The notes under the pieces: generated by a model
Databases searched by the model: none
Told to the model about the DNA's origin: nothing
The model's input: the letters and a program-made list of their open reading frames with translations, nothing else
From: Candidatus Omnitrophota bacterium
GTDB taxonomy: Bacteria; Omnitrophota; Gorgyraeia; 2-02-FULL-51-18
Reading direction: 5' to 3'
Length of the DNA: 64,000 nt
Assembly (NCBI GenBank): GCA_016197155.1
Contig: JACPWF010000019.1
Location: forward strand, 1,485 to 65,484
Shown here: positions 2,321 through 33,082 of the stretch, in pieces
How the letters are laid out: every line of letters starts with the position of its first letter
Position numbering within the stretch: position 1 is the stretch's first letter
Made by a program: the position numbers and the translations under genes

Positions 2321-2323
2321 AAG

Positions 2324-2602
2324 CTATATTCCAAGCTTGTTGAACAGGTCGTTCAGGTCCTTCGCTTTTACGGATTTTCTTTCCTCGACTTCTTTCATCG
2401 CCTTCAGCGTCGTTCTGCCCGGAAGAAGGACGTCGAACGGGATTCCCTTTTTGAGCGTGACTTGCGCGAAGAATAAATTGATGGCCTCGGAACACGAAAG
2501 CCCCAATTTGTGAAAGATCCTCTCGACCTCGGTCTTGAGACCGGGCTCCGTTCGCGCCCGGATCATCGCGGATCTGGCCATGGTTATTCCCTCCTGAGAC
2601 AA
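2324..2602 (-). CDS. dinJ: Type II antitoxin, DinJ/RelB family
   Basis: 92-aa ORF immediately upstream of the yafQ-like gene (3-nt gap), RHH-type DinJ-like sequence. Confidence 0.7.
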   Translation of the reverse strand: MSQEGITMARSAMIRARTEPGLKTEVERIFHKLGLSCSEAINLFFAQVTLKKGIPFDVLLPGRTTLKAMKEVEERKSVKAKDLNDLFNKLGI

Positions 2603-14240: not shown

Positions 14241-15307
14241 CAGAGCGACCCGTGAATCAATAAATCCCGCCCGATCCATTTCGTGCAAAGCCCCCGCACG
14301 CGGAAGGCGTCACACGCCGCTCCGGACCCGCCAATAATTTGCGGGGCCACGAAAAAATAAACCTCCTGAACGGCCTTTTCCTTAAAAAAACTTCCCAGCA
14401 CCTCAGCGCCTCCCTCCACCAGAAGCCGCGCGATCCCCCTTTGGCCCAGGAGACGAAGGAGGGACCGGATGTCCACCCTCCCCTTTTTTTCCGGCACCAA
14501 AAGCAGATCCGCTTTGCCGCGGAATTTTTCCCATTTCCGGCGCGGGGCCGCGCGCGTGACCGCGATCCAGACGGGCGCCGGGGATTTTTGGGAGAAGATT
14601 TTCGCGTTCACGGGTGTCCGCAGACGGCTGTCCAAAACGATTTTCACGGGATTTTTCCGGGTCTTGGCGTGCCGGACGCTTAAGAGCGGGTCGTCTTTTA
14701 AAACGGTGTTGATCCCCACGAGGATCGCGTCGGCGTGCGCGCGAAGCTCGTGTCCGAAACGCCTGGCCGGCAGGCCCGTGATCCAACGCGGCGCGCCGCG
14801 CGGAGGCTGGGTCTTTCCGTCCAGGCTCTGCGCGACTTTCGCGACCACGTAAGGGGTCCGGCGGCGGACCCAGTGGCTGAAATCCTTGTTGAGCGCCTCG
14901 GCCTCCGCGCGGCGCACGCCGGCAATCACGCGGACCCCCGCCTTTTGAAGCGCGCGGATACCCCGCCCGTGAATCAGGGGATTGGCGTCCAAACACGCGA
15001 TCACGACTTTTTTCACGCCGGCCTCGATGATCCGCCTGACACAGGGCGGCGTTTTGCCGGTGTGCGTGCAGGGCTCGAGCGTGCAGTAGAGCGTCGCATC
15101 CGGAGGGACCGTTCGAAATTTGGAAAGGGCGTTGATTTCCGCGTGAGGGCCGCCGAACCACTCGTGGGCCCCCTCGGCGATGATTTTATTCCGGCGGACG
15201 AGAAGCGCGCCCACGAGCGGATTGGGGTGGACGCCCCCGATGCCGCGCCGCGCCAGCTCCAGCGCCCGCGCCATAAAAAAATCGTGTCTGGAATTTATTT
15301 TTTGCAT
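14240..15307 (-). CDS. ribD: Bifunctional diaminohydroxyphosphoribosylaminopyrimidine deaminase / 5-amino-6-(5-phosphoribosylamino)uracil reductase
   Basis: CMP/dCMP deaminase zinc motif (HAEINAL ... [15 protein letters not shown]) plus a C-terminal reductase domain. Confidence 0.9.
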
Positions 15308-15756
15308 TCGGTCTTGGCAATCCGGTCGAGAATCCCGTTCACGAATTTGGACGAATCGGCTTCCCCGTACCGTTTGGCCAGCTCCACCGCCTCGTTGATC
15401 GCGACCTTCACGGGAATTTCGTCCGTCAGATAAAGGATCTCATAGCCGGCCAGCCTCAAAACATTCCGGTCGACGATCCCCATGCGTTTGATCTCCCAAT
15501 TCTCGGCGAAACGCTCGATGACCTTGTCTATTTCCGTCAATTTTTCCAAAACGCCGCGCGTGAGCTTCTCGGCGTACCGGCGCACCTCGGCGTCTTTTTT
15601 GTCGTTCTCCACCGCGCGCTTCTCCCCGTCGGAAAGGGCCAGGTCCGTGCGGTCGAGCCAAAAATCCTCCAAGACCTCCCCGACGGGATGACGCGTGATA
15701 TCCACTTCGTAGAGCACCTGAAGCGCGAACTCGCGACTGCGCGTGCGCTTACGCAT
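15295..15756 (-). CDS. nusB: Transcription antitermination factor NusB
   Basis: 153 aa, [19 protein letters not shown]... NusB fold, embedded in the rib operon as in many bacteria. Confidence 0.85.
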
Positions 15757-16237
15757 GGGCGAGGGATCTTTTGGACAAACGGCGCATCACATTCGCCATT
15801 TGAATGGCTGAAAGCGCCCACTCGCGGCCTTTATTCATCTGTTTTAATCCGACGCGCGCGACGGCCTGTTCGGCCGAGCGCGCCGAAACCATTCCGAGAA
15901 TGACGGGCACCTCGGACTTCATCGACAGTTCGCGGATGCCGCGCGCGGCCTCCATCACCACCTGATCAAAGTGCTTGGTCTCCCCTTTGATCACAACGGC
16001 CAGCGCAATCAGCGCGTCCCATTTCCCGGCCTTCAAAAGTTTTTTCGCCGCCAGCGGCAATTCAAAAGCGCCCGGCACCCAGACCACCGACAGGTCCTTC
16101 TCCCGCGCGCCGTGCCCGCGAAGCGTCTCGAGCGTTCCCTCGAGCAGCCGGCCGGTCAAATATTCGTTGAACTCGGAAACGACGATGCCGAATTTTTTCC
16201 CGCGCGCCGAAAAATGGCCCTTTATTTTTCTAACCAT
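15749..16237 (-). CDS. ribH: 6,7-dimethyl-8-ribityllumazine synthase
   Basis: 162 aa, ...[21 protein letters not shown]...[10 protein letters not shown]... Confidence 0.9.
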
Positions 16238-17444
16238 GACGCTTCAAATCCAGAAAATGGCCGAGCTTGGTTTTTTTTGTGTGCAGGTATTTTTGATTGT
16301 GCCGTCCGGGCGGGATCTCGAGCGGCACGCGCTCGACGACCTCGAGGCCGTAACCTTCGAGGCCCACGATCTTCTTCGGATTGTTCGTCAAAAGGCGGAT
16401 CTTTTTGATCCCGAGATCCGCGAGGATCTGCGCGCCGACGCCGTAATGCCGCAGGTCCGCCGCGAAGCCCAGGCGCTCGTTGGCCTCCACGGTGTCGAGG
16501 CCCTCGTCCTGCAGTTGATAGGCCTTCAATTTATTCAAAAGCCCGATCCCGCGGCCCTCCTGCCTCATGTAAAGAAGGACTCCCGTTTTTTCGCGCGCGA
16601 TGAGCGCGAGCGCGTTGCGGAGTTGTTCGCCGCAGTCACAGCGCCGCGATCCCAAAACGTCCCCGGTAAAACATTCCGAATGGACGCGCACGAGGATATT
16701 TTTTTTCGGATTCAGCTCTCCCATCACCAGGGCGATGTGATAGTCCTTGTCGACGGCGGATTCATAGGCCACGAGCCTGAAGTCGCCGAAGGGGTTCGTC
16801 AGGCGCGTCTCGACGGCCTTCGAAACCAGTTTCTCTTTTTTGCGGCGGGTTTCAATGAGGTCCCGGATCGCGCAGATTTTGAGTTTGTGTTTTTTTGAAA
16901 ATTGAATGAGATCCGGCGTGCGCGCCATGCTCCCGTCGTCGTTCATGATCTCGCAGATGGCCCCCGCCGGATACAGCCCCGCCAATTTCATGAGATCGAC
17001 GCACGCCTCCGTGTGCCCGGCGCGAACGAGCACCCCGCCTTCGCGCGCGCGAAGCGGGAAAATGTGGCCCGGCCGCACGAGGTCGTCTTTGGTCGTTTTG
17101 GGATCAATTAAAACTTTAATGGTTTTCGCGCGGTCGTACGCCGAGATGCCGGTGGTGATGCCGTGCCGGGCGTCGATGGAAACCGTCCAGGCGGTTTTGA
17201 ATTCATCCACGTTCCGGTCGGAGACCATCGGATCGACGCCGAGCGTCTCCAGACGCCCGGCCTCCATCGGCACGCAGATGATCCCGCGCCCGTGCTTGGC
17301 CATGAAATTGACGTGATGCGGCGTGGCGTGCGCGGCGGCGACCACCAGGTCCCCCTCATTCTCGCGGTCGGCGTCGTCCACCACGATGATGAGCTTTCCT
17401 TTTTTCAGATCCGATAAAATTTCGGGAATCGAGCTGAATTTCAT
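16230..17444 (-). CDS. ribBA: Bifunctional 3,4-dihydroxy-2-butanone-4-phosphate synthase / GTP cyclohydrolase II
   Basis: 404 aa with an N-terminal DHBP synthase and a C-terminal GTP cyclohydrolase II (CxxC...C zinc motif RRCDCGEQL). Confidence 0.9.
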
Positions 17445-17454
17445 TTGTTTCGCC

Positions 17455-18471
17455 TCAAAAATATTCCTGCATGAAAGCGGTCACGCGCTCCTGAACGCTC
17501 GCGAACGCGTGCCGTCCCCGGGACGTGCGGGGCCTTTGTTTTTCGAGTTCATCCGCCACGTGAAGCAGTCCCGCAAGCGACGCGTATTTCGCTTCGCCGA
17601 GTTTCGCCGGCCCCAAAGGCAGGGCGACGCGCGCCGGGACAGGGATCGCCGGTTGGATAAGGTCCGCGAGATTTTTGTCCGCCGCCAGGTCTCCCGTCAC
17701 CAGGATCTCCGCCGGGGACCCATTTTTTTCCCAAAACGCCTTGATGCGGGACGGTGCGTTTTCGTCCGTCAACCAAAGGGCGTGATCCCGGATCGCGCCG
17801 TCCTCAAACAGGATCCCATTCAAAAAATCCTTTCCCCAATCGAAGATGAGCGACCTTTTCCGCCGGTCTTCCTTCGGGAGAATACCATAGGCCGTGGACC
17901 ACGCCGACACCACCGGGATCGCGTGCGGCACCTGGCACCGGTAAAAAAGTTTCTGCCACATCCCGAAATGTTCGGCGCCGGCCACGAGCAGATGCATCGA
18001 CACGCCGAGCTTCCTTCCGAAAACGCCGACGGGGCTGGCCACCAGGTCGCGGTCATCGATGAGAAAACCGGTCTCTCTGGCGTAGACGACGCTTTTGTCG
18101 AAATGGGCGGCCAGGCGCAGCGCGGTGTGCCGCGCGCGGCGGACATCCGAACGCCGGATCTCGCCCTCTCCGGAAATGGATTGGGAACCCTGGGCGCGCA
18201 CGCTCTCCATTCCGGGGTCATCCAAATTGTAATAGACCGCGCGGAATTTCACGCCGGATGATTTTTCCGCCTTCCGGATCGCCTCGTGGACGCATTCGAC
18301 CGCGTCGCCCAGATGGACGATCCGGCCCCGCTCGACGCCGTCGGCGGCCACTTCCCCGCCGCCCAGAAGATGAAAAGAGCCGTCCGCTTTTTTCTCCGCG
18401 CAGACGGCGATCACGGTTTCGGCGCCGAAGTCCGTCACGCAGAGAGTCTTCCGGGAAAACAATCGGTTCAC
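17455..18471 (-). CDS. ftsA: FtsA-like actin-family cell-division protein, divergent and short (338 aa)
   Basis: Aligns with E. coli FtsA subdomain 1C ([40 protein letters not shown]) and the C-terminal 2A region ([18 protein letters not shown]...). Part of 2B and the C-terminal amphipathic helix are missing. It lies directly after ftsQ. Confidence 0.6.
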
Positions 18472-19280
18472 CTGGGGCCGATCACCACATCGTCAAAACG
18501 CAAATCGATGTATCGGATCTTGGAAGGGTCCAGCACCACCGAGCGAAGCGTCTGGTCGAGGACTTTGAGGCGTTCGGTGAAATGATTGCCGCCGATCCGG
18601 ATTTCCATTTCGGAATCCACGAACAGGTTGATGTTGTTCGGGTCCGTGATGTCCACCTTCGTCAGCAGGTGCTTTTGCAGGACGCGCGAACGCTTCACCA
18701 TTTCAATGAGCCACATCGCCTTTTTGGTGGCCCGGTCCGAAACGGCCTCGCCGACGTAAAGACCCGCGGCCGGTTTCGGCGACCCCTGGATCACGGTCAG
18801 ATTTTTGAACGGCGCGGGGCTCGAGGCCGGCAGGAGGATCAGGTCCTTGTCGATCTGCACGTAGCGCGAAAACGCCACCTGGGCGGCGGGCGTCCTGCGC
18901 CGGAGCAGAATTTCGATGCGGTTCGGAAGGACCCGTCTCACGCACACCTCTTTAAACTCGGGGTGCTTTCTTTTGATGACCTCCTGGACGTTCACCAGAT
19001 CCAGCGTGATCAGATTTTCCCCGCGGCGCAATTCGCAGAATCCAAACGCCTGGTCGCTCGTCAGCGTCCCGATATTCAAAATCTTCACTTCCGTCAGCTC
19101 GAACGTCGAAGAGTTCACCGCGTAGGCGATCACCCCTCCGAACAAGATTCCCACCAGCGACAGCGACAAAACATACGGGAGGGAAACGATCAAAAATTTC
19201 CGCGACAGATTCACGAGCCTGACGGGAAATTTGGAATCGGCGCCGGAGCGCTTTCTAGGACTTTTTGACCACCTGGCCAC
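18468..19280 (-). CDS. ftsQ: Cell division protein FtsQ/DivIB (single TM + POTRA)
   Basis: 270 aa with an N-terminal TM segment and a POTRA-like region, in the dcw position between ddl and ftsA. Confidence 0.7.
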   Translation of the reverse strand: MARWSKSPRKRSGADSKFPVRLVNLSRKFLIVSLPYVLSLSLVGILFGGVIAYAVNSSTFELTEVKILNIGTLTSDQAFGFCELRRGENLITLDLVNVQEVIKRKHPEFKEVCVRRVLPNRIEILLRRRTPAAQVAFSRYVQIDKDLILLPASSPAPFKNLTVIQGSPKPAAGLYVGEAVSDRATKKAMWLIEMVKRSRVLQKHLLTKVDITDPNNINLFVDSEMEIRIGGNHFTERLKVLDQTLRSVVLDPSKIRYIDLRFDDVVIGPR

Positions 19281-20199
19281 TGGACACCTTCCTTTTGGAT
19301 AAGTCTAAAATTTTAACACAAAGCCCGGGGAAATCGAGGCCCCTGGCCTCGGCCGCTTTGGGCAACAGGCTCTTGCCCGTGAGGCCCGGGATCGTGTTCA
19401 CCTCGAGCACGTAGGGCCTCTCGTCACGGCCCCATATTATATCCACTCGGCCCATCACTTCACAACCTAAACACGCGTAGGCCTCGCGCGCGGCGCGGCG
19501 GACTTTTTCGGCGCTTTCCCCGTCCAATCTCGCCGGAAACTCGTAGCGCGTGCCGGTGTCCCTGTATTTGGCGGCGTAGTCGTAAAATTTTCTTCCGGGG
19601 ATCACTTCCACGATCGGCAAAACCTCATCCCCCAAAATCCCCACCGTGAGCTCGCGTCCGGAAATGTATTCCTCGGCCAGCGCCAGATCGGAATAACGGA
19701 AGGCCTCCTCGCGCGCTTTTTCAAAATCCGCCTCCCGGGTGACGATCGTCACGCCCACGCTCGACCCCGAGGACGCGGGCTTCACGACAAAAGGGGCAGA
19801 AAAAGGGGCGGGGGCCCGGTCCGTTTTTTCTTTGCTCAATATTTTAAAGGCCGGCACTAAAATCCCCGCTTTTTGAAAAGCGCCTTGCGCGATCGATTTG
19901 TCAAACGCGTTCCGGCTCGCCAAAACGCCCGATCCCGTGTAAGAAATTTCGGCCTCTTCCAAAAGGGCCTGCGCCGCGCCGTCTTCGCCGAACGTGCCGT
20001 GGAGCGCGATGAACGCCGTGGAAATTTTCCCGCGTTTCAGCGCCGAAATAAAATCATTTTCTTTCGGATCGACCTTTACGGCGTCCATTCCGAGCCCCGA
20101 CAGCGCCTCAAACACCGCCTGCCCGGAAATGAGGGATATCTCTCTCTCGCAGGACGGCCCGCCGCAGAGGACCGCGATTTTTTCACGGCCGTTTTTCAT
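19255..20199 (-). CDS. ddl: D-alanine--D-alanine ligase
   Basis: 314 aa ATP-grasp, MKNGREKIAVLCGGPSCEREISLISG... Confidence 0.9.
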   Translation of the reverse strand: MKNGREKIAVLCGGPSCEREISLISGQAVFEALSGLGMDAVKVDPKENDFISALKRGKISTAFIALHGTFGEDGAAQALLEEAEISYTGSGVLASRNAFDKSIAQGAFQKAGILVPAFKILSKEKTDRAPAPFSAPFVVKPASSGSSVGVTIVTREADFEKAREEAFRYSDLALAEEYISGRELTVGILGDEVLPIVEVIPGRKFYDYAAKYRDTGTRYEFPARLDGESAEKVRRAAREAYACLGCEVMGRVDIIWGRDERPYVLEVNTIPGLTGKSLLPKAAEARGLDFPGLCVKILDLSKRKVSSGQVVKKS

Positions 20200-22517
20200 A
20201 AAATTTTAACCTCCGTCTCCAAATCGACTCCGGCTTTTTCGCGAACCCTCCGGCGGACCGCTTCGATGAGGGCCGTCACGTCCTTGGCGGAGGCCCCGCC
20301 CAAATTGATGAGGAAATTGGCGTGCACCGTCGAAACCTGCGCGCGGCCGACCGTGAGCCCCTTGAGGCCCGCCTCGTCGATCAGTTTTCCGCTGGAGCGC
20401 GCGCCCTCGGCCGGATTTTTGAAGAGACACCCGGCGCTGGGGTGCTTCAGGTCCTGCGTGTTCATCCGGTGCGCGTGATACTCGTCCAATTTTTTCTGAA
20501 CCGTTTCGCGCGCGCGGCGCGGCAGGCGAAACACGGCCTCCACGATGACGCCGTCCCGGATGCCGGAGGAGCGGTAGCCAAAACCGATTTCGCTTTTTTT
20601 TAATTTTTTAAATTCCCCCTCAAACGTGAGAAGCGTGATTTCTTCCAAAATCGAATCCATGGACTGGCCGTGACTGCCCGCGTTCATCGCGACGGCGCCG
20701 CCCAGATTTCCCGGGATGCCGGAAAGAAATTCACAGCCGCCGAAACCATTTTCCAGGGCCAGCTGAATGAAAAGCGAGTTCGGCACGCCGGCCCGCGCGG
20801 TGATCGTTTCCTTTTCCACGCGCGCTTCCTTGAAATAAGCCGCGCCCAAGTGGATCACGGCCCCTTTCAATCCTTCGTCCGGCGCGAGGACGTTGCTCCC
20901 CGCTCCAAAAATGTGGATCGGAAGGTTTTTCCCGCGGCAGATGAGGACCGCCCGCCTCAGATCCTCCGCGTCCGCGGGCTCGATCCAAAACTCCGCCGGT
21001 CCCCCGATCCTGAGAGACGTGTGTTTGGCCAGCCCCTCCGAGGGGACCACCTTTCCGCGGACTTCGCGGAATAAATTCAGATGCGCCGCCAGTTCCCAGG
21101 CCACTTCCTCGATGTCCCCCGCGCCGAGCACCATCACCAGATCCCCCGGCCGGATCTCATTTTCCAAAGCCGCGTAAACTTCCGGGCGCGGCACAAACGC
21201 GGCGTCGGCATGCCCCGACTCGCGCACCGCGCGGCAAAAACCCTCGCCGCTCACGCCCGGAATGGGTGTCTCGCTCGCGGCGTAAATGTCGGTGACGATG
21301 AGTTTGTCCGCGGCTGAAAAACTCGACGCGAAATCCTTCAAAAAAAATTGGGTGCGCGTGAAACGGTGCGGCTGAAAAACGGCGAAGAGCCGTTTGGGCC
21401 CGAGCGCCCGGGCCGCGGCGAGGGTTTTGTGGATCTCCGTCGGGTGATGGGCGTAATCATCGACGATCTAAAACCTGCCGTCTTCGTATTGGACGCCGAA
21501 CCGGCGGCCCGCGCCTTCGTATTTTCCGAGTGCGGCGGCGATCACGGAAAAAGAGACGCCCAATTTCAATCCGACGGCGGCCGCCCCCAGCGCGTTCAGC
21601 ACGTTGTGAACGCCCAAAAGATTCAGGCGCACGGGGCCGAGACACCGGCCCTTTTCCCACATCTTGAACGCGACCGCGCGCGCGTTTTGCGGGCACTCCA
21701 CGATGTCCGTCGCGTAAAACTCGTTTTTGGGATCGAGGCCGTAAAGGCGCGCGGGCCGGATATTTTCCCGTGCCAGGCGCAAAACGCGCGCGTCTTCGGC
21801 ACAGCCGATCCATTCGGCATCCGCCGGCAGGCGCCGCAGGAAATCGCGGTAGGCGTCTTCCACGCGGCCGATCGTTTCAAAATGTTCCATGTGATCGGCC
21901 TCGATGTTGGTGATGACCTCGATGGCGGGTGAAAATTTGAGAAAGGAAGAATCGCTCTCGTCCGCTTCGATCACGATCTCGGACCCGCCGCCGAGGCAGG
22001 CGTTGCCCCCGAACGCGCCGACGACGCCGCCGACCACGATCGACGGGTCGCGGCGGGCCTCTTTCAAGATCATTCCGATGAGCGCGGTGGTCGTGGTTTT
22101 TCCGTGCGTGCCGGTCACGGCGATCGTGGTTTTGCCTTCACAAATTTCGGCGAGCGCCTCGGCGCGGTGAAGGAGCCTCGCCCCTTTTCGCGCGGCCTCG
22201 AGCCGCTCGGGGTGATCGCGCGAAATCGAGGTGGAATAAACCACGGTGCCGGCGCCGTTCACATGAGACGCGTCGTGCCCCATCAACACCCTCGCGCCGG
22301 CCTTTTCAAGCCCGCGCAGGACCTCGTTCATTTTGAGGTCACTGCCCTGCACGGCGTATCCCAGTGACAGGTAGATGCGCGCGAGGCCGCTCATCCCGAT
22401 CCCGCCGATTCCGATGAGGTGAATGGTTTTCTGTGAATTCACGAGGCAAGCTCTTCGATGAAATTGGCCAGCCGCGAGCGCGACGAATCCGCGGCCGGGT
22501 GGTCCCCCGGCGGCCAT
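20196..22517 (-). CDS. murC-murB: UDP-N-acetylmuramate--L-alanine ligase fused in-frame to UDP-N-acetylenolpyruvoylglucosamine reductase (MurC-MurB). The reading frame is interrupted by a single in-frame TAG at 21468..21470.
   Basis: Track ORF 21468..22517 is the MurC N- and central domains (GIGGIGMSGLA...). After one TAG codon the same frame continues (IVDDYAHHPTEIHKTLAAARALGPKRLFAVFQPHRFTRTQFF...) into track ORF 20196..21341, which starts on TTG. That ORF holds the MurC C-terminal domain joined without a stop to type-II MurB (...LAKHTSLRIGGPAEFWIEP...). Confidence 0.75.
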
Positions 22518-23542
22518 CCGTTATTTTTCTTTTCGGTGATTTTTTGAAAATATTGCGCAAGAAGCTCCGCCAATTTTTTCGGATCAATTTTCAATTCATC
22601 GAGCACCGCCGCGTCGTGGGTCCGGCTAAACACGCGGGCGTTGACCTTCTGGTGGCCGTTGCCGTGAGGGTACGGCACGAGGATCGCGGGAATTTTTTTC
22701 GCCGCGATCTCGGCGAGGAACGTCGCGCCCGAACGGCCGAGCGCCAGGTCCGCGGCGGCGTAGGCGAGGTCCATTCTTTCGAAAAAGGCGTACGCGCGGC
22801 AGTTCATTCCGGCGTCGCGGCAGGTTTTTTCCGACTCAAACGGGGGCATCTTTCCCGAGAGGTGCAGGATCTGGACACGCCCGCGCCAATCCTCCGGCAG
22901 AAATTTGAGGGCGCGGAAAAAAAGCGCATTGATGGATTCGGCGCCCTGACTGCCGCCGAGAAGAAGGAGCGTCATTTTCCCGGCGTCAAAACCAAAATAG
23001 CCGAGCGCCTCCTCGCGGTTCCCTTTCTCAATGGACGCGCGGATGGGGTTGCCCGTGACACGCACGTCTTTTGCCTTTTTTGGGAGAGCGCCCTTCGTCT
23101 CGGCGAAACTGAGCGCGGTCCCGTCCGTCCAGCGGCTTAAAAAACGGTTGGCGACTCCCGGCACCACGTTCTGTTCATGGATCAAGGTCCGTACCCCCAT
23201 GAGCCTCGCGGTCAAAACCACCGGAAACGAAAAATAACCCCCGAACCCGACCACGACATCCGGCTTTTCCGCCCCAAGCGCCCGCGCGCTCCCCAGGATC
23301 CCCGCGGCCAATTTTATCAGAAACCGCGCGTCCCATAAAGAGCGCCGCCCGAGAAACGGCGCGCTCGCGATGGAGATGACTTTTTCGTTTTCGAGGGGAC
23401 GGAAGATCTCGCGCTCGATGCCCTTATTCCCGCAGACATAAACGATCCGGCAATCCGGCCGGCGCTTTTTCAATTCTTCCGCCACGCTGAACGCCGGAAA
23501 AATATGCCCGCCGCTTCCCCCGCACGCGAGGACGATCTTCAT
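22439..23542 (-). CDS. murG: Undecaprenyldiphospho-muramoylpentapeptide beta-N-acetylglucosaminyltransferase
   Basis: MKIVLACGGSGGHIFPAFSVAEEL... The ATG at 23542 overlaps the ftsW stop (ATGA). The track ORF 5' extension was rejected. Confidence 0.9.
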   Translation of the reverse strand: MKIVLACGGSGGHIFPAFSVAEELKKRRPDCRIVYVCGNKGIEREIFRPLENEKVISIASAPFLGRRSLWDARFLIKLAAGILGSARALGAEKPDVVVGFGGYFSFPVVLTARLMGVRTLIHEQNVVPGVANRFLSRWTDGTALSFAETKGALPKKAKDVRVTGNPIRASIEKGNREEALGYFGFDAGKMTLLLLGGSQGAESINALFFRALKFLPEDWRGRVQILHLSGKMPPFESEKTCRDAGMNCRAYAFFERMDLAYAAADLALGRSGATFLAEIAAKKIPAILVPYPHGNGHQKVNARVFSRTHDAAVLDELKIDPKKLAELLAQYFQKITEKKNNGWPPGDHPAADSSRSRLANFIEELAS

Positions 23543-24645
23543 CCGCTTTCTCCCGGCCTTTCTTTGGAAAGAGTCCACAAAAGCCCCACGCCCGCCAGGT
23601 TCGCCAGGAGCGCCGACCCGCCGTAGCTGATAAAAGGAAGCGAGAGCCCCTTGGTCGGCAGGGCGCCGATGCTGACGCCGATATTGATCACCGCCTCGAG
23701 GCCGATCAGCGAAACGAGGCCCAATCCCAAAAGCTGGGGGAAAAAATGATGGGAACGGAACACGATCACCATTCCGGCGAATAAAAATAAAATGAATAAA
23801 ATGACGACGGCGCTCGTGCCCACAAATCCCAGCTCTTCCCCGATGATCGAAAAAATAAAATCCGTGTGCGATTCGGGAAGATAAAAAAGTTTCTGCTGGG
23901 ACTGCCCGAGCCCCACGCCGAAAAACCCGCCCGAGCCCAGCGCCAAAAAAGACTGGATGATCTGAAACCCGACGCCGCGCGGGTCCTCCCACGGATGAAA
24001 AAAAGCCAAAAGCCGTTTGCGCCGGTAGGGCCTGGAGAGGGCCGCGTACACGACCACCGGCGCCGCCAGGAGGACCGCGGTCAATAGAGTGGAGACCCTG
24101 AACCCGGCCGCGAAAAAAAGAATGAAGATCACCAGCGCCACCGTGACCGCCGTCCCGAAGTCCGGCTGTTTGAACACCAGGCCCACCGACAAACCCAAAA
24201 TGAAAAGAGCCGGCAGGACGGTGCGTTTCAGATCGTGAAGCGATTCTCTCCTGCGGTCGAGGAAATCGGCCATGTAAAAAATGAGCGCCAATTTTAAAAA
24301 TTCAGAAGGCTGAAAACTGAATCCCAAAATTTTAAACCAGCGCCGCGCGCCGCCCATGGAATGGCCCACGTGAGGAACCAGAACCATCGCGAGCAGTGCC
24401 AGCGCGGCGATGAGAATTCCCTTGGCGTGCCTTCGAAGTCTTTGAATATTCACCAAAGCGGCCAACCACGCCAAAACGCCGCCCAGCGCCAGATACGCCA
24501 AATGGCGTTTCAAATAATACGCGCTGTCCTTCATCTGGTCGAGCGCGTAAATGGCGCTGGCGCTGTAAATCATCACGGCCCCCAGCGCCAGGAGGACCAG
24601 CGTCGAACCCAGGAGGATCGCCCGCGCTTTTTTCAGGGATTCCAT
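23539..24645 (-). CDS. ftsW: Peptidoglycan glycosyltransferase FtsW (SEDS family)
   Basis: 368 aa polytopic SEDS protein between murD and murG. Confidence 0.85.
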   Translation of the reverse strand: MESLKKARAILLGSTLVLLALGAVMIYSASAIYALDQMKDSAYYLKRHLAYLALGGVLAWLAALVNIQRLRRHAKGILIAALALLAMVLVPHVGHSMGGARRWFKILGFSFQPSEFLKLALIFYMADFLDRRRESLHDLKRTVLPALFILGLSVGLVFKQPDFGTAVTVALVIFILFFAAGFRVSTLLTAVLLAAPVVVYAALSRPYRRKRLLAFFHPWEDPRGVGFQIIQSFLALGSGGFFGVGLGQSQQKLFYLPESHTDFIFSIIGEELGFVGTSAVVILFILFLFAGMVIVFRSHHFFPQLLGLGLVSLIGLEAVINIGVSIGALPTKGLSLPFISYGGSALLANLAGVGLLWTLSKERPGESG

Positions 24646-26003
24646 CAGGAGACGGCCAGTTCCGCGAAAATTTTCTTAAAGGTCTCTCCGCGGTGTTCGA
24701 AAGAATGAAATTGGTCAAAGCTCGCGCACATCGGCGATAAAAGGAGCGCGTCGCCCGGCCCCGCGAGCCGGTAGGCCAGGCGCGCGGCCGCGGAAAAATC
24801 TTTTTGAATGTGAAAACGCCTGAACGATCTCCAGGATCCGGCGATCTTTCCGGCGGCCTCGCCGTACAAAACGGCTTCCTTCACTTTATCCTCGATCACG
24901 TCTTCGATGGATCCGAAATCCGCGCCCTTGTCGCGCCCGCCGGCCACGAGCACGATCGGCCCGTCCGTCGCGAGGATCGCCGCCCGGGTGCTGCCCACCG
25001 TCGTTGACTTGGAATCGTTCACAAAACGCACGCCGCCGATCTCCCCGACGGGTTCGATCCGGTGCTCGAGCGCGCGGAACGCGCGAAGCGTCTTTTGAAG
25101 TTGCGCGGGGGACACGCCGAAAACGTCCGCCGCCGCGACGGCCGCCAGAATGTTTTCCAGGTTGTGATCGCCTTTTAACGGAAAATCCTCTTTTTGAAAA
25201 AAACGGCGCGCGTGTCTCGCGTCTTTTTTCACGATCCAGCCGTCTTCGACGCAAAAACCGGCGGGGATCGGATGCCGGCTAAAAAAAATGACGCGCGAGC
25301 GCGCCCTTTTGGCCATTCGCCGCACGGCGGGGTCGGCGAAATTGAGGATGAGCACGTCGCCCGGCTTTTGGTTGGCGAAAATTTTTTCCTTCGCGCGGAC
25401 GTAATTTTGAAACGTCCCGTGCCGGTCGAGGTGATTGGGCATGACGTTTAAAACCACCGCCGCGCGCGGCTTGAGGTGCGGGCTGTCCTCGAGTTGAAAG
25501 GAGCTCGTCTCGAGCACCACGCGCGTTTTCGCGCCGATCGACGCGAGCGCGTCCAAAAAAGAAAACCCGACGTTGCCGCACAACACGCTCTTTTGCCCCG
25601 CCTCGACGAAAAAGCGATGGAGGAGGTGGCTCGTCGTCGTCTTGCCGTTCGACCCCGTGACCGCCACGATCGGCCCTTCGCAGAAAAGCGAGGCCAGGTC
25701 CACTTCGCTCATAACCGGGATCTTTTTTTTCTTCGCGAACACAAGCGGCAGGCTTGTTTTCGGCACGCCGGGGCTCGTCACGACGAGCTCGCTTCCCAAT
25801 AGAAATTTCCCGGTGTGCCCGCCGGTCTCGACGCGGACGCCGAGGCCTTTTAAAAGGGCCGCGTTTCGAAGCGCGCCTTTTTTATCCGAGGCCTCCGTGA
25901 CGCGCACGCCGGCTTTTTGCGCGGCGAGGAACTTTGCCGCGGCCAGGCCGCTCCGGCCCAGTCCCACCACCGCGATTTTCTTGCCTTTTAATTTGAGCGT
26001 CAT
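24645..26003 (-). CDS. murD: UDP-N-acetylmuramoylalanine--D-glutamate ligase
   Basis: True start at MTLKLKGKKIAVVGLGRSG (about 26003). The track ORF carries a 193-aa spurious N-extension overlapping mraY. Confidence 0.85.
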   Translation of the reverse strand: MTLKLKGKKIAVVGLGRSGLAAAKFLAAQKAGVRVTEASDKKGALRNAALLKGLGVRVETGGHTGKFLLGSELVVTSPGVPKTSLPLVFAKKKKIPVMSEVDLASLFCEGPIVAVTGSNGKTTTSHLLHRFFVEAGQKSVLCGNVGFSFLDALASIGAKTRVVLETSSFQLEDSPHLKPRAAVVLNVMPNHLDRHGTFQNYVRAKEKIFANQKPGDVLILNFADPAVRRMAKRARSRVIFFSRHPIPAGFCVEDGWIVKKDARHARRFFQKEDFPLKGDHNLENILAAVAAADVFGVSPAQLQKTLRAFRALEHRIEPVGEIGGVRFVNDSKSTTVGSTRAAILATDGPIVLVAGGRDKGADFGSIEDVIEDKVKEAVLYGEAAGKIAGSWRSFRRFHIQKDFSAAARLAYRLAGPGDALLLSPMCASFDQFHSFEHRGETFKKIFAELAVS

Positions 26004-27088
26004 TGGAGTTTCAGCGAAGACAGCCCCGCCAGAGCGAGGATGATCGAAATGATCCAGAAGCGGATGACGACCTTTGATTCCGCGAGTCCTTTCAATTGAA
26101 AATGATGATGGACCGGCGCCATTAAAAAAATTCTTTTTTTTCGGAATTTGTAACTGGCCACCTGCAGCATGACGGACACGGCCTCCGCGACAAAAATCCC
26201 GCCGACGACCAAAAGTAACAGCTCTTTTTTGATCAGGACCGCGACCACTCCGAGCGCCCCGCCGAGGCCCAGCGACCCCACGTCCCCCATGAACACGCTC
26301 GCCGGATGCGAATTGAACCACAAAAAACCCAGGCCCGCGCCAAAAAGCGCCGCGCAAAAAACGGCCAGCTCGCCCGCGCCCGCCACGAACGGGATTTGCA
26401 GGTACTGGCTGAATTTCGCGTGCCCCGTGACGTAGCTCAAAATGCCGTAGGTGAGCGCGATCATGAGCGTGGAGCCCACGGCCAAACCGTCCAGGCCGTC
26501 GGTGAGATTCACCGCGTTCGAGGCGCCCGCGATCACGAGCGCGACGAATAAAATATAAAACGGCCCGATGAGGATCGCCCAATCCTTCAAAAACGGCACG
26601 TGGATTTTCTGCCAGCCCGGCGAATCCCAGTACAAAAAAGCGCCGAGAATGAGCCCCACCGCCACTTGTCCCGCCAGCTTGTTCGCCGCGGCGAGCCCTT
26701 TTGAATTTTTTCTCGACAGTTTCAAATAATCATCGACAAGTCCCACGCCCCCCAGCCACAGCACGACCGCGAGGGTCAGAACGACATAACGGTTCGTCAG
26801 GTCCGACCATAAAAGCGTCGAAGCCGTGACCGCGCCCAGGATCAAAAGGCCGCCCATCGTCGGGATCTTTTCCTTTCCCGCGTGCGCGCCGTAGAGCGCC
26901 GAGAAACCCGCGCGTTCGATGGTCTGTTTGAAATCGAGCCGCGAAAGAAAACGGATCACCGCCGGCCCGAGCCACACGCTCACGCCAAACGCCGTGAGAC
27001 TCGCCATCGCGGCGCGAAACGTGATGTAGCGGAAAACGTTGAAGCCGAAGAAAAAATCCCTTAACGGGTAAAGGAAGTGATAAAGCAC
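26000..27088 (-). CDS. mraY: Phospho-N-acetylmuramoyl-pentapeptide-transferase
   Basis: A GTG start at about 27088 gives MLYHFLYPLRDFFFGFNVFRYITFR..., matching the E. coli MraY N-terminus. It overlaps the murF end. Confidence 0.85.
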   Translation of the reverse strand: MLYHFLYPLRDFFFGFNVFRYITFRAAMASLTAFGVSVWLGPAVIRFLSRLDFKQTIERAGFSALYGAHAGKEKIPTMGGLLILGAVTASTLLWSDLTNRYVVLTLAVVLWLGGVGLVDDYLKLSRKNSKGLAAANKLAGQVAVGLILGAFLYWDSPGWQKIHVPFLKDWAILIGPFYILFVALVIAGASNAVNLTDGLDGLAVGSTLMIALTYGILSYVTGHAKFSQYLQIPFVAGAGELAVFCAALFGAGLGFLWFNSHPASVFMGDVGSLGLGGALGVVAVLIKKELLLLVVGGIFVAEAVSVMLQVASYKFRKKRIFLMAPVHHHFQLKGLAESKVVIRFWIISIILALAGLSSLKLQ

Positions 27089-28335
27089 TCGAAGACCTTT
27101 TCCATTTTCATTCCCCGCGAACCCTTCACCAGGACCCGGTCGCCCGCCGACGCCCATTCGCGGCAGAGCGCTCCGGCGTCCTCGGCGTTTTTCACGTGCC
27201 GGATCCTCGATGAGTCAAACCCATTTTTCACGGCCTCGTCCACAAGCGCCGCGGACAGGGGACCCGCCGCGATCACAAAATCAAATAAAAATTCCGCCAG
27301 AAGCAAACCCATCCGCCGGTGCAGGGCCCCGGCCTGTCCGCCGAGTTCCAGCATATCCCCGCACACCACGCCTTTTTTTCCGCGCGTCTCGAGACTTTGA
27401 AGCGCCTCGAGCGCGGCCTTGAACGAGACGGGGTTGGAATTGTACGTGTCATTGATGAAATGGATCCCGGCGATTTCTTTTTCCTCGAGCCGGCCTTTGA
27501 CGGGCTCGAAAGAACCCAGGCCCTCGCGGACAGTCCCTTCATCGATGCCAAGCTCCGTCGCCGCGGCCGCCGCCAAAAGACCGTTCAGCCGGTTGTCGCG
27601 GCCGATGAGCCGCATCGGATAACGGTCAGAAAAGGACACGCGCAGAATGCGGTGGCGTGCGCTTTTGATTTCTTTCAATGAAGGATCTTCGCCGTTTACA
27701 ATAAATATCCCGCCGGCCGCGAGCCCCTTCAAAATGCCCAGCTTTTCTTCCCTGACGCCTTCCAAATTATTCAATCCTTCCAGATGCGAGTGCCCGACCC
27801 GCGTGAGAATGGCGAGCGTCGGCGAGGCCATGCGCGACAACCGCCCGATTTCTCCCGGCCGGTTCGTCCCCATTTCCAACACCAGGACCTCATGCCCCCT
27901 CCGAAGCCGGAGGATAGTCTTGGGCACGCCCACCAGATTATTTTCGGTGCCTTCATTTTTCAACACGTTCAATTTTTTTTTCAAAAGATGCGCGAGGAGC
28001 TCTTTCACGGTGGTCTTTCCCACGCTCCCCGTCACGGCGACGACGGGGATCTTAAATTGTCCGCGGTAAACTTTGGCGAGCTCCCCGTAGGCCTTGAGCG
28101 TGTCGCGGACTTTCAGAAAACCCGCGGATTTTTCAAATTTTGAATGAATCTTTTTCGAATCGGAAAAAACAACGCGCCACGCGCCCTTCGCGACGGCCTC
28201 TTCGATAAAATCATGGCCGTCAAAACGCGGCCCCTTGAGCGCGAAAAAAATATCGCCCTGTTTTAACGTGCGCGTGTCCGTGGAAACGCCGCGTCCGGGC
28301 AGTTCGAGCGCCAATTGTCGAAGATCAGTTTCCAC
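27061..28335 (-). CDS. murF: UDP-N-acetylmuramoyl-tripeptide--D-alanyl-D-alanine ligase
   Basis: 424 aa Mur ligase (VAVTGSVGKTT P-loop). Confidence 0.9.
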   Translation of the reverse strand: METDLRQLALELPGRGVSTDTRTLKQGDIFFALKGPRFDGHDFIEEAVAKGAWRVVFSDSKKIHSKFEKSAGFLKVRDTLKAYGELAKVYRGQFKIPVVAVTGSVGKTTVKELLAHLLKKKLNVLKNEGTENNLVGVPKTILRLRRGHEVLVLEMGTNRPGEIGRLSRMASPTLAILTRVGHSHLEGLNNLEGVREEKLGILKGLAAGGIFIVNGEDPSLKEIKSARHRILRVSFSDRYPMRLIGRDNRLNGLLAAAAATELGIDEGTVREGLGSFEPVKGRLEEKEIAGIHFINDTYNSNPVSFKAALEALQSLETRGKKGVVCGDMLELGGQAGALHRRMGLLLAEFLFDFVIAAGPLSAALVDEAVKNGFDSSRIRHVKNAEDAGALCREWASAGDRVLVKGSRGMKMEKVFECFITSFTR

Positions 28336-29788
28336 GAAGCACCCTCTCGGCCTCTTCGCGGTCGCTGAACGGGATCCGCTCCCGGCCGATCACCTGCTCC
28401 CGCTCGTGCCCCTTTCCGGCCAGAAGGACGATGTCTCCCCGCCGCGCGGACAAAAGCGCCTGCCGGATCGCTTTTTTTCTGTCCAGGACGACCGAATATT
28501 TTTTAAAATCCGCCGGGAAACCCGCGCAAACTTCCCCGGCGATTTCTTTTGGATCTTCCGAACGCGGGTTGTCGGAGGTCACGATCACGCTGTCCGAATA
28601 CTCGGCGGCGATCCGCCCCATCCGGGGCCGTTTCCCCGTGTCGCGCTCCCCGCCGCATCCGAAAACGGTGATGAGTTTGGCGGTTTTATAAGGGGCGAGA
28701 CTCCGCAGGACATTTTCGAGACCGTCCGGCGTGTGGGCAAAATCCACAAAGACGGCGAAATCCTGCCCGCCGTCCACCGCCTCGAGCCGGCCCGGCACGC
28801 CTTCAAAATACCGGAGGCTCTCGGCGCATTTTTTAACGTCGAGTCCCATCGCCGAGGCCACGGCCAAACTGCCCAGCGCATTGTACACGTTGTGCAGTCC
28901 CAAAAGCGGCGACACGACCTCGAGCCGGCCTTCGGGATAGGAGAGAGAAAATTTCGTGTCCTTCAGACCCGCCGCGATCTCGCGCGCCCTGAAATCCGCC
29001 TGTTCCTTCACCGCGTAAGTGAGGTCGCGTGACCGGATCTTTTTTTTTAATTTTTGACCCCAGGGGTCGTCGCCGTTGATGACGGAAAATTGACCGGGCG
29101 ACAGTCCCGTGAAAAGCCGCGACTTGGCTTCAAAATAGGCCTCGAGCGTTTTGTGATAATCCAGATGGTCCTGCGTCAAATTCGTGAAAAGCGCGGCCGC
29201 AAAATCGATCCCCGACACGCGCCCCTGGTCAAGCGCATGGGACGAAACTTCCATCACCGCGTATGGCAAGCCCGCGCTCACCATTTCGGAAAAAATGGAC
29301 TGAAGCCGCAGAGGCCCGGGCGTGGTTTCGGAGGCGGGGATTTGGCGCCCGGCAAAGCGGGTGTTGACAGTCCCGATCACACCCACCTCGCGGCCGCTTG
29401 TTTTTAAAAAGTGTTCGACGAGATAACTGCAGGTGGTTTTGCCGTTGGTGCCCGTGATCCCGATGACCTGCAAATGTCTGGCCGGATGCCGGTAAAAAGA
29501 GCCCGCGAGCCGGGAGGCGGCCTCGCGGCACCCGGGAACCAAAATAAAAGGAATGGCGCCGGGCAGATCCAAAGGCCGCTCACCGGCCACCGCCGAGGCC
29601 CCGCGCTCGATCGCCTCGCGGACAAAATCCCCGCCGTCCTGTTTGACGCCCCGGACCGCGAGAAACAGAAAATCTTTTCCGACTTTCCGCGAATCGCATT
29701 CGAGGCCCCGGATTTCCAGGTCCGGCAATGAAGAAAATTCCCGCCGCTCCGGATACGCCTCCTCGAAAAGCGCCTTTAGGGAAATCAT
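28325..29788 (-). CDS. murE: UDP-N-acetylmuramoyl-L-alanyl-D-glutamate--2,6-diaminopimelate ligase
   Basis: 487 aa Mur ligase (IGITGTNGKTT). Confidence 0.9.
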   Translation of the reverse strand: MISLKALFEEAYPERREFSSLPDLEIRGLECDSRKVGKDFLFLAVRGVKQDGGDFVREAIERGASAVAGERPLDLPGAIPFILVPGCREAASRLAGSFYRHPARHLQVIGITGTNGKTTCSYLVEHFLKTSGREVGVIGTVNTRFAGRQIPASETTPGPLRLQSIFSEMVSAGLPYAVMEVSSHALDQGRVSGIDFAAALFTNLTQDHLDYHKTLEAYFEAKSRLFTGLSPGQFSVINGDDPWGQKLKKKIRSRDLTYAVKEQADFRAREIAAGLKDTKFSLSYPEGRLEVVSPLLGLHNVYNALGSLAVASAMGLDVKKCAESLRYFEGVPGRLEAVDGGQDFAVFVDFAHTPDGLENVLRSLAPYKTAKLITVFGCGGERDTGKRPRMGRIAAEYSDSVIVTSDNPRSEDPKEIAGEVCAGFPADFKKYSVVLDRKKAIRQALLSARRGDIVLLAGKGHEREQVIGRERIPFSDREEAERVLRGN

Positions 29789-31542
29789 TCGACGGCGGCC
29801 GCGCGCAGGCCGGATGTTTTCACGAGAGATGCCCCGGGCCGGATCACTTCGCGCGGCGCTTCGGTTTTGTCAATCTGCCAATAAGACAAAACGCCCGAGG
29901 CGATCCTCGAAAAAGCGGGTGCGGCGACGTCGCCGCCGTAGTACACCGGGTGCGGCTCATCGACGCTGACGGCGATCACGACCCTGGGCTCGTCGTAGGG
30001 AACAAAACCCGCGAACGACGCGACAAACTGGTCGTGCGAATACGTGCCGTTCGGTAAAATTTTCTGCGCGGTTCCCGTTTTTCCCGCGGCTTTAAAACCG
30101 GGCACCGCGGCCTTTTTGCCGGTCCCGCGGCTCACGACGCTCTCGAGCACCGTGCGCACCTGAAGGGCCGTCTCTTTTGAGATCACGCGGCGGACCGTTT
30201 CGGGTTGAAAATCTTGAACGACCTTGCCGTCCGCGTCGTCGATGCGCGTCAAAATCCGGGGCTTCATTAAAATCCCGTTGTTGGCGATCGCGCCAAATGC
30301 CGCGGCCAACTGGAGCGACGTCACCGCCACCCCCTGGCCGATGGGAATGTTGATGATCGAACTGCGCGACCAGTTTTTCGGATTCGGCACGATCCCCCCC
30401 ACTTCACCGGCCAGGCCAATGCCGGTTCGTTCCCCAAAACCGAAAAGACGGATCGTCTGGTACAGCTTTTCCCCGCCCAGCCGCAGGGCGCCCTTCACCG
30501 TGCCGATGTTGCTCGACTTTTCAATGATCTCCCGGAACGGCATCACGCCATGCCGCGTGTGGTCGTGAAGCACCTTTCCCGCGACGGCCCAGGAGCCGTT
30601 TTCGCAGTCAAATTTTTCATTGAGGCTGAACGCCTTATTTTCCACGATGGACGAGAGCGTGAAGGTCTTGAAAACGCTTCCCGGCTCGAAGATATCCGTG
30701 ACGGCGCGGTTGCGTTTTTCCTCGGCGGAGGCCTTTTTGGAGTGGTTCAAATCGTAGAGCGGAAAATTCGCCATCGCCAAGATGTCGCCGGTCCCGGGAT
30801 CCAAAACGATCGCCGAACCCCCGCGCGCGTTAAATTTTTTGCAGACCTCGGCCAGCTCTTTTTCCGCCAGCGACTGGATCACCTCGTCGATGGCCAGGTG
30901 GATGTTGTACCCGTCCACGGGCGAGACCATCTCGACCTCGCGGGAAACCAGTTCCCGGCGCTTGGCGTCCTTTTGGGCCAACCGCCAGCCCGGCACGCCT
31001 TTCAGGAAACTGTTGTAATGAAGCTCGATGCCCTCGAGCCCCTCGTTGTCGATGTCGGTGAATCCGACCAGATGGCAGGCCGTGTCCCCCTTGGGATACA
31101 CCCGCTGGGATTCTTTCACAAATTCCAGCTCTTCGATTTTGAGGCGTTTGACCGCCTCGGCCTTGGCGGGCGAAATTTTCCGCGCGACCCACACAAAAAG
31201 TTTATCGCGGTCGAGGCGGTTGAAAATTTCCCCGCGGCCTATCCCCAGGATCCGGGAAAGCGCGGCGGAGACGGCGTCCTTATTTTTAATTTCGCGGGAG
31301 ACCGCGTAGAGAGAGTCGAGGCGGATGTCGAGCGCCAGATCCCGGCCTTTTGAATCGACGATCCTTCCGCGGGCCGGCTGCATCTCGATAATGGCGCGGG
31401 ATTGATTGCGCGCGAGCGATTGGTATTTCGAGGACTTCCAGATCTGGAGGAATCCCAGGCGGAGAAGAAGACAGAAAAGGAATAAAAGAAACAGAAAAAA
31501 GATAAAGAACAGGCGCGTCTTTGAAAGAGAGGAATCGGCCAA
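29785..31542 (-). CDS. ftsI: Peptidoglycan D,D-transpeptidase FtsI (PBP3 class)
   Basis: 585 aa with an N-terminal TM segment, PBP dimerisation domain, and transpeptidase motifs (SxxK ...). Confidence 0.85.
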   Translation of the reverse strand: MADSSLSKTRLFFIFFLFLLFLFCLLLRLGFLQIWKSSKYQSLARNQSRAIIEMQPARGRIVDSKGRDLALDIRLDSLYAVSREIKNKDAVSAALSRILGIGRGEIFNRLDRDKLFVWVARKISPAKAEAVKRLKIEELEFVKESQRVYPKGDTACHLVGFTDIDNEGLEGIELHYNSFLKGVPGWRLAQKDAKRRELVSREVEMVSPVDGYNIHLAIDEVIQSLAEKELAEVCKKFNARGGSAIVLDPGTGDILAMANFPLYDLNHSKKASAEEKRNRAVTDIFEPGSVFKTFTLSSIVENKAFSLNEKFDCENGSWAVAGKVLHDHTRHGVMPFREIIEKSSNIGTVKGALRLGGEKLYQTIRLFGFGERTGIGLAGEVGGIVPNPKNWSRSSIINIPIGQGVAVTSLQLAAAFGAIANNGILMKPRILTRIDDADGKVVQDFQPETVRRVISKETALQVRTVLESVVSRGTGKKAAVPGFKAAGKTGTAQKILPNGTYSHDQFVASFAGFVPYDEPRVVIAVSVDEPHPVYYGGDVAAPAFSRIASGVLSYWQIDKTEAPREVIRPGASLVKTSGLRAAAVE

Positions 31543-31610
31543 AGGGTTTCCCTAAAGTTTTATTTTATTATAGGCGCCGCTTGTGCCGAATACAATAACG
31601 TTCGTGCTTC

Positions 31611-31982
31611 TTAATCCGATTCCCTGGCTTCCGCCTGCGCGGTCCCCACAAAAAATTTGGCGACAAAGGGCACGCGGATGGCCGGCGACGTCCCGGCCAT
31701 CTCGGAAGCCCGAGGCCCCCCGGCCCCCGGCATCACGAGCGTCTGCCAGGATTTCGGGGAGGCAAGCGTGATGTGCTGTGCGAGGAGTTTTCTCTCCAGA
31801 TTGTGCGGCGCTTTCAAATTGGCGATGCTGAACTTGAGCGCGCGGCCCCGGTCCAAAAGCAGGGTCTTGGCCTCTTCCTGCCTGCGGATCGCGTAGCCGG
31901 TCTTGACGGCCTCGACCTCTTCATAAACGTAAACGAGCGCGGCGAGCGTCACGACGGTTAAACAGGCCGCGAAGCGCCTCAT
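31611..31982 (-). CDS. ftsL: Cell division protein FtsL-like
   Basis: 123 aa single-TM protein between rsmH and ftsI. Confidence 0.6.
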   Translation of the reverse strand: MRRFAACLTVVTLAALVYVYEEVEAVKTGYAIRRQEEAKTLLLDRGRALKFSIANLKAPHNLERKLLAQHITLASPKSWQTLVMPGAGGPRASEMAGTSPAIRVPFVAKFFVGTAQAEARESD

Positions 31983-32881
31983 GAATGCTCCTCCGCAATT
32001 TTTAGAAACGCGCGGAGCTTGGCGCTTCGGGAACGGGGGTTCCGGCTCATTTCCGCCTCGGACGGAGTGACCGGTTTTTTGGTGAGGATCTTTCCCTCGC
32101 CGGCTTTTTGAAAATTTCTGAACGCGTTTTTCACGATCCGGTCCTCAAGCGAATGAAAGGAAATGATGACGAGCCTCGCCCCTTCATCGAGACCATCCGT
32201 CACCGACGAAAGAAACTCTTCCAGAGAGCGAAGCTCTTCGTTCACGGCGATCCGGAGCGCCTGAAACGTGCGCGTCGCCGGATGGATGCGCCCGTAGCGA
32301 TAGGACGCGGGAACGCTCGATATGACGAGGGCCGCCAATTCAAAGGTACTGCGGATCTTTTTTTTCCGGCGGGTCTCGACGATCCGGCCCACAATCTTTC
32401 TGGCAAAGCGCTCCTCGCCCCATTTCCACAAAAGTTCCCGCAATTCCTCTTCTCTATAACCATTCACAATGTCCGCCGCGGAGGGCCCCTCCGAAGGGTC
32501 CATGCGCATGTCGAGCGGGCCGTCGGTTTTAAAACTGAATCCTCTGCCGGGTTCATCCAACTGCAGGGATGAAAGTCCCAGGTCGAGCAGCATCCCCTGC
32601 ACCCTGCCGATGCCAAACTCGGCGATCCGATTCCGCACGTTTTTAAAATTATCGTGAATGACCATCACGCGCTCTCCAAAACCGGCCAAAACCCTCCGCG
32701 CTTCCCGGATCGCGCCGGGGTCGCGGTCAAACCCGACGAGCCGCCCGTCCGGCGCGCTTTTTTCGAGAATGCGCCGGGCATGTCCCCCTCCGCCCAGGGT
32801 CCCGTCCACGATCACCCCGTTCGGGCGCGGCGCAAGCCACTCGACGGCTTCCTCCAGCAAAACACTTTCGTGTGCCGCCAC
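31979..32881 (-). CDS. rsmH: 16S rRNA (cytosine1402-N4)-methyltransferase
   Basis: 300 aa, ...VDGTLGGGGHARRILE... SAM-MTase, MraW family. Confidence 0.9.
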   Translation of the reverse strand: MAAHESVLLEEAVEWLAPRPNGVIVDGTLGGGGHARRILEKSAPDGRLVGFDRDPGAIREARRVLAGFGERVMVIHDNFKNVRNRIAEFGIGRVQGMLLDLGLSSLQLDEPGRGFSFKTDGPLDMRMDPSEGPSAADIVNGYREEELRELLWKWGEERFARKIVGRIVETRRKKKIRSTFELAALVISSVPASYRYGRIHPATRTFQALRIAVNEELRSLEEFLSSVTDGLDEGARLVIISFHSLEDRIVKNAFRNFQKAGEGKILTKKPVTPSEAEMSRNPRSRSAKLRAFLKIAEEHS

Positions 32882-33082
32882 GTTTTCTTTCTAAACGAAA
32901 CTAACGGTGTTTCGCGTCGTTTTTTGAAATAAAAATAACCTCGCGGGTCTTTTGACGCTGAACGAGCCGGTCAAAAAATCGCGAGTGCGCCTCCAGCCAC
33001 GACAAAGGCGAAAGCGCGCGCCGGCGTTTAAAATTCTCCACGCTGTCTTCCGCCCAGGACCCCGAATAAGCCGCCTGATTCC

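Follow-up and report, generated by a model that had tools for sequence, protein, structure and literature searches.

The window, i.e. the whole 64-kb stretch of DNA that was analysed, contains a string of dcw and peptidoglycan genes in which a murC–murB fusion gene lies directly between murG and ddl (Table 1). From ATG 22517 to TGA 20196 (minus strand), the frame comprises 774 codons, with a TAG as its sole internal stop. This agrees with the original prediction of a MurC frame that is open from about 22500 to 20196 except for one amber codon. A start at ATG 22517 would overlap murG by 78 nt. GTG 22442 overlaps the stop codon of murG as GTGA, matches the lengths of the homologs and is also the GenBank start of the 324-residue piece described below. 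Thus, GTG 22442 is the likelier start and a gene of 748 codons is preferred, with the TAG at codon 325. The plus strand reads CTA at this site.

Table 1. Features of the murC–murB locus and of other parts of the window, in positions of the window.
Feature	Position	Strand	Remarks
murG	22439..23542	minus	directly upstream, intact; full-length matches to the N- and C-terminal Glyco_transf_28 profiles
murC part 5' of the TAG	21471..22442	minus	Mur ligase domains 1 and 2, with the first strand of domain 3
Amber codon TAG	21468..21470	minus	frame translation and homolog alignment column
Rest of MurC domain 3, 3' of the TAG	21093..21467	minus	DDYAHHPTE and FQPHRFTRT motifs
MurB domain, type II	20199..21071	minus	residues ~458–748, FAD_binding_4 and MurB_C; Pfam, NCBIfam, PDB
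murC–murB stop codon TGA	20196..20198	minus	overlaps the ddl start codon (ATGA)
ddl	19255..20199	minus	directly downstream, intact, terminator TAG; MBI3252315.1
GenBank CDS MBI3252317.1	21468..22442	minus	324 aa, position includes the TAG; 'hypothetical protein', HYZ52_03210
GenBank CDS MBI3252316.1	20196..21341	minus	381 aa, from TTG 21341; 'UDP-N-acetylmuramate dehydrogenase'
ftsA	17455..18471	minus	SHS2_FTSA domain; MBI3252313.1
ftsA, ribBA, ribH and nusB	15295..18471	minus	directly consecutive
UvrC-like gene	8109..9341	minus	410 aa
prfB	6831..7932	minus	release factor 2
prfB shift site	~7859–7874	minus	programmed +1 frameshift
RelB antitoxin/YafQ toxin pair	2051..2602	minus	both genes TAG-terminated
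Giant ORF	52184..63991	minus	at least 3935 aa, open nearly to the end of the window

The codons around the stop are GGC AGG TTT TAG ATC GTC GAT GAT TAC GCC CAT CAC CCG, which translate to GRF, stop, IVDDYAHHP. YEDGRF precedes the amber codon and IVDDYAHHPTEIHK follows it. Codon, frame and motifs are as described earlier, with the amber codon behind GVQYEDGRF, in MurC domain 3 and upstream of DDYAHHP. The MurC portion ends at about residue 450 of 748 and aligns to Haemophilus influenzae MurC (1GQQ) through residue 470. The junction to MurB (residues 450–458) is open and the sole stop sits inside MurC. The window was scanned for isolated stops with at least 120 open codons on either side. The amber codon is the only such case within a recognisable gene; the remaining stops lie between neighbouring genes or in non-coding frames.

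The domains found by Pfam are, in this order, Mur_ligase, Mur_ligase_M, Mur_ligase_C, FAD_binding_4 and MurB_C. All three Mur ligase families (PF01225, PF08245 and PF02875) are present and the match to PF02875 spans the TAG. In the numbering of the 773-residue translation, the NCBIfam profile of murC (TIGR01082) matches residues 32–475 with 465 bits (cut-off 335.1) and the MurB profile NF010480 matches residues 483–773 with 325.5 bits (cut-off 259). The profile of the E. coli-type MurB (NF000755) reaches 119 with a cut-off of 277. Among structures in the PDB, the short type-II enzymes 1HSK and 2GQT are full-length matches to the MurB part, and 4PYT and 3TX1 match as well. Structures of the E. 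coli/Pseudomonas type (4JAY and 7ORZ) give partial matches only. The MurC motifs, i.e. the P-loop GTHGKTTTT, DDYAHHP and PHRxTR, are present in columns that are invariant across 30 orthologs. Judged by its domains, the full-length product would be a MurC–MurB bifunctional enzyme for which both activities are predicted. The NCBIfam and PDB matches support the earlier assignment of a MurC that runs in frame, through an open junction, into a type-II MurB.

The fusion itself had been called uncommon, which does not hold for this lineage. More than 100 clusters of MurC–MurB fusions over the full length were obtained from a search of 5.8 billion proteins. These belong to Omnitrophota wherever the source names an organism, and a chimera from Verrucomicrobia is known. 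Judged by these sequences, the fusion is of an already known kind and is the rule in Omnitrophota; it is indeed present in related genomes, where it is the norm rather than an exception. Fusions from Omnitrophota (e.g. P0001–P0072) share 54–66% identity with the window copy over 94–97% of its length and have the same architecture. All of them are uninterrupted, unlike the window copy. Some are named 'UDP-N-acetylmuramate--L-alanine ligase/UDP-N-acetylenolpyruvoylglucosamine reductase' by JGI. In two relatives (L085 and L086) the gene order mraY-murD-ftsW-murG-murC/B-ddl-ftsQ-ftsA-ribBA is identical to that of the window.

The MurB/C chimera of Verrucomicrobium spinosum (770 aa) complements murB and murC mutants of E. 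coli (PMC4803751), and MurB/C is also found in other Verrucomicrobiales and in Methylacidiphilales (Naqvi et al. 2016, PMC4803751). The Omnitrophota gene resembles it in the order of the parts (MurC N-terminal, MurB C-terminal), in the five Pfam domains, in size (748 versus 770 aa) and in the gene order ftsW-murG-murB/C-ddl-ftsQ (PMC4803751). It differs in that it belongs to another phylum, shares only ~41% identity, carries the TAG and has putative enzyme activities. In a Verrucomicrobium MAG a continuous ORF of 775 aa aligns with 41% identity to query residues 7–748. That locus was the only useful result of a motif search of genome contigs derived from the ortholog alignment, in which the motifs were generic (GTHGKTTTT and VIEADESD); the matches listed came from distant phyla and included no Omnitrophota. 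Among Mur chimeras, MurC–MurB belongs to the five major types and accounts for 11% of the chimeras in UniProt, mostly from Verrucomicrobia (PMC10214165). This survey left out unidentified species and hence did not cover Omnitrophota (Shirakawa et al. 2023, PMC10214165).

The original prediction had also pointed to the orthologues at the amber site, and these have a sense codon throughout. In a MAFFT alignment of 120 listed homologs, the column under the TAG contains Leu (65), Met (44), Ile (5), Trp (3), Gln (1), Thr (1) and Cys (1), i.e. Leu or Met in 109 of 120, and none of the aligned homologs has a stop there. None of 249 retrieved proteins terminates at the site, including those from a search with the 324-residue fragment alone. 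Short matches to this fragment either extend past DDYxHHP or end sooner, which is consistent with partial sequences. At the DNA level, the site reads CTG, CTT and CTT in three of the closest relatives (61–66% identity), whose genes contain no internal stops. At the aligned position, the H. influenzae enzyme (1GQQ) carries Arg. Thus, the residue at the amber site is not catalytic.

TAG is one substitution away from TTG (Leu), TGG (Trp) and CAG (Gln). TTG accounts for 314 of 1627 Leu codons (19%) in the genes of the window and for 14 of 71 in murC–murB. The closest relatives have CTN codons instead of TTG, which counts against an origin from TTG; at a protein divergence of ~35%, however, these codons say little about the ancestral one. 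The nearest fusion among the matches listed has 66% identity and is thus too distant for a relative from the same strain or species. The exact DNA pattern across the codon, with the stop replaced by NNN, had no matches in genome contigs and none in metagenome contigs. Accordingly, there is no second copy of the strain in the contig collections searched.

By exact sequence matches, the window lies on a contig of 72,072 bp. In GenBank, the source MAG ('Candidatus Omnitrophica bacterium', locus tags HYZ52_*) has murC–murB deposited as two CDSs. The TAG is thus already in the public record and cannot be put down to the window itself. The uninterrupted frame expected for MurC is broken in the deposited sequence at codon 325. 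The first in-frame start past the TAG is TTG 21341, 42 codons on and beyond the DDYAHHP and FQPHRFTRT motifs, and the ORF of 381 aa that begins there contains neither DDYAHHP nor PHRFTR. A MurC that is made in two pieces was therefore rejected: MurC domain 3 with both motifs could not be made as a separate piece. Taken literally, the deposited sequence would give a MurC fragment of 324 aa in which domain 3 is largely missing; MurB would be made only after an internal restart of translation. Pathway surveys that go by product names could overlook murC in this MAG. FtsA is likewise labelled 'hypothetical protein' in the same record. Directly after its gene come ribBA, ribH and nusB instead of ftsZ, and the adjacency of ftsA and ribBA is also found in the relatives L085 and L086.

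The gene is not decaying. Across 30 sequences, one of which is the query, about 100 columns past the TAG are invariant, among them DDY-HHPTE, PHR..R and the MurB motifs. The ratio of downstream to upstream identity, determined against 29 orthologs, is 0.929 for the query and 0.894–0.988 for intact orthologs. No second lesion is present in the 423 codons after the TAG. The invariant residues are kept and the identity ratio is within the range of the orthologs; on an evolutionary scale, the stop is instantaneous. The other peptidoglycan genes of the cluster had been described as intact, and matches to Pfam profiles or Logan gene calls confirm their full length (rsmH, ftsL-like, ftsI, murE, murF, mraY, murD, ftsW, murG, ddl, ftsQ, ftsA and murJ). 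Among complete genomes of Omnitrophota, 176 of 176 contain murB and likewise 176 of 176 contain murC (bioRxiv 10.64898/2026.06.07.730766). Given this universal occurrence and the intact pathway in the rest of the window, murC–murB is considered indispensable in Omnitrophota, and a null allele in the majority of cells is implausible.

The stop codons of greedily selected, non-overlapping ORFs of the window are TGA (21), TAA (19) and TAG (11, including the amber codon of murC–murB). The 10 other ORFs that end with TAG include ddl, ribBA, YafQ, relB, lptE, lnt, cvpA and the UvrC-like gene, and ddl and ribBA belong to the same gene string as murC–murB. The Pfam matches of YafQ (88/88, up to the last residue) and RelB (82/82) reach the end of the profile at the TAG. 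That TAG is a genuine terminator elsewhere, as proposed for the yafQ-like gene, was thus verified. In this antitoxin/toxin pair, both genes have the profile end and the TAG in common.

The UvrC-like gene was considered as a second case of an in-frame TAG (8109) and was rejected because more stops follow within 25 codons, so that this TAG is a true terminator. Its product has a GIY-YIG and a UvrC RNase H domain and lacks the C-terminal helix-hairpin-helix; a non-coding gap of 337 bp follows. No other conserved gene in the 64 kb contains an in-frame TAG.

A recoding event of a different kind occurs in prfB. The short frame that starts with ATG 7932 ends with GGG AGG ACT CTT TGA C, and the main ORF in the +1 frame contains the SPF and GGQ motifs. 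The +1 frameshift of prfB is a classical, well-known recoding event.

An independent assembly of run SRR12113391 (Logan) provides contigs that are 100% identical to both flanks of the locus. L082 corresponds to window positions 33126..23574 and L001 to 21272..17297. Together they comprise 13,529 bases with 0 mismatches. The Logan assembly is broken over an interval of 2.3 kb in which the TAG lies together with murG and the 5' portion of murC. This break fits low coverage or heterogeneity and is a weak sign in favour of a lesion in the consensus only, although there are other possible causes. Exact look-ups of the Logan products expected from the interval (MurG of 367 and 379 aa; MurC of 349, 324 and 308 aa) returned none; for the MurC piece of 324 aa, NCBI is the only source in the protein collection. 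An exact look-up of FtsW for a spanning Logan contig gave no match. Guessed cut products in which the site was filled with L, W, Q, K, E, S, Y or M were unmatched. The known cut product of L001, used as a control, was equally absent, which means that cut products are not indexed and that the missing matches carry no weight. A literature search for the run accession found nothing. Among ~30 genes that were checked with Pfam or Logan gene calls, no other broken gene was found. With 0 mismatches over 13.5 kb and ~30 full-length genes, the assembly is generally clean and random consensus errors are rare here, which counts against an artefact.

A reassignment of TAG to a sense codon in the host has the amber codon of murC–murB as the one observation in its favour. 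Ten other ORFs end in TAG and family profiles end there, stops follow within 25 codons of the UvrC-like TAG, and the 64 kb hold no further in-frame TAG. Reassignment is therefore excluded for practical purposes and has the lowest probability of all explanations; the earlier view that a global reassignment is unlikely is upheld by these counts. A programmed decoding of UAG, either by pyrrolysine, by a dedicated suppressor tRNA or by stimulated readthrough, would give a regulated full-length enzyme. Its sole support is the intact downstream frame. The stop is conserved in no homolog, the predicted RNA fold of 151 nt that surround and follow the stop is no better than that of shuffled sequences (z = -0.9), and Rfam gave no match over 19000..24000 even at E <= 1. 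ARAGORN found only tRNA-Val(CAC) and tRNA-Met(CAT) in the 64-kb window, with no suppressor tRNA and no CUA anticodon; pyl genes are likewise absent from these 64 kb, and TAG is common as a terminator. Furthermore, the site is a plain hydrophobic one (Leu or Met, with Arg in H. influenzae), which suggests no need for a special residue. Programmed decoding is thus very improbable. Of the three options raised originally (sequencing or assembly error, recent nonsense mutation, programmed readthrough or suppression), this is the one that has no support, as the stop is neither conserved nor accompanied by a structure or by a suppressor tRNA in the window. Slightly less probable still is a scenario in which the majority of the population truly has the amber codon and translates it in vivo, with the help of a natural amber-suppressor tRNA or through efficient readthrough. 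If so, an essential cell-wall enzyme of Omnitrophota would depend on the suppression of a stop codon.

Two readings with an ordinary mutation or error have to be weighed against each other. Most likely, the TAG is a consensus error or a minor allele, with a real nonsense allele of very recent origin as the less likely alternative. We consider it probable that a non-programmed single-base lesion is present in the deposited consensus only, either as a base-call or assembly error or as a rare allele taken by the assembler. By the simplest route, TTG (Leu) would have changed to TAG by one T>A on the coding strand (plus-strand position 21469), at a codon for Leu or Met in every close relative, and the living population would carry an intact bifunctional enzyme of 748 aa. 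Alternatively, the nonsense mutation may be the majority allele of the sampled population, with MurC–MurB truncated; this is a doubtful but clearly better candidate than any form of recoding. It is favoured by the presence of the TAG in the consensus of an otherwise clean assembly. The base after the TAG is A, a candidate context for suppression; an A following the stop reportedly favours amber suppression in E. coli (attributed to Bossi, 1983). In addition, an SD-like GGGGGA ~10 nt before the in-frame ATG 21134 could allow translation to restart upstream of the MurB domain. If the allele were real, cells might survive by near-cognate readthrough at a low level, by a chance suppressor tRNA or by a second copy of murC/murB elsewhere, or the lineage may be nearing extinction. 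The universal presence of murC and murB in Omnitrophota (bioRxiv 10.64898/2026.06.07.730766), the intact partner genes and the constraint that is not relaxed past the stop argue against a nonsense allele, as do the lack of an in-frame start before TTG 21341 and of a suppressor tRNA in the window. Since the gene that is hit is expected to be essential, an artefact is favoured over a real null allele, and we infer an artefactual lesion or a minor allele rather than the majority allele.

The case resembles ordinary pseudogene calls in MAGs in that a single, substitution-type stop led the annotator to split the gene into two CDSs. It differs in that the gene hit should be an essential one. With an artefact or a rare allele, the practical consequence is a correction of the annotation, with MBI3252317.1 and MBI3252316.1 as the halves of one MurC–MurB gene. 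The amber codon would be of biological interest only if it were fixed, as an essential gene would then hinge on suppression; otherwise the feature is ordinary.

Two further observations concern large proteins. The giant ORF has only scattered Pfam matches (Aldolase_II twice, Cupin_2 and PIG-L), and its size is in line with the 'very long proteins' described in Omnitrophota (bioRxiv 10.64898/2026.06.07.730766). Some Omnitrophota relatives have triple MurC–MurB–Ddl fusions of 1060–1099 aa (P0022, P0034, P0038, P0046, P0048, P0055, P0059, P0062, P0063 and P0068). The word 'triple' is absent from the text of the Mur chimera survey (PMC10214165). The fusion context is mildly useful, with the chimera as the rule in Omnitrophota and its extension to Ddl in some relatives. 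In the window, the overlap of the murC–murB stop with the ddl start (20196..20199, ATGA) is one base away from such a triple fusion.
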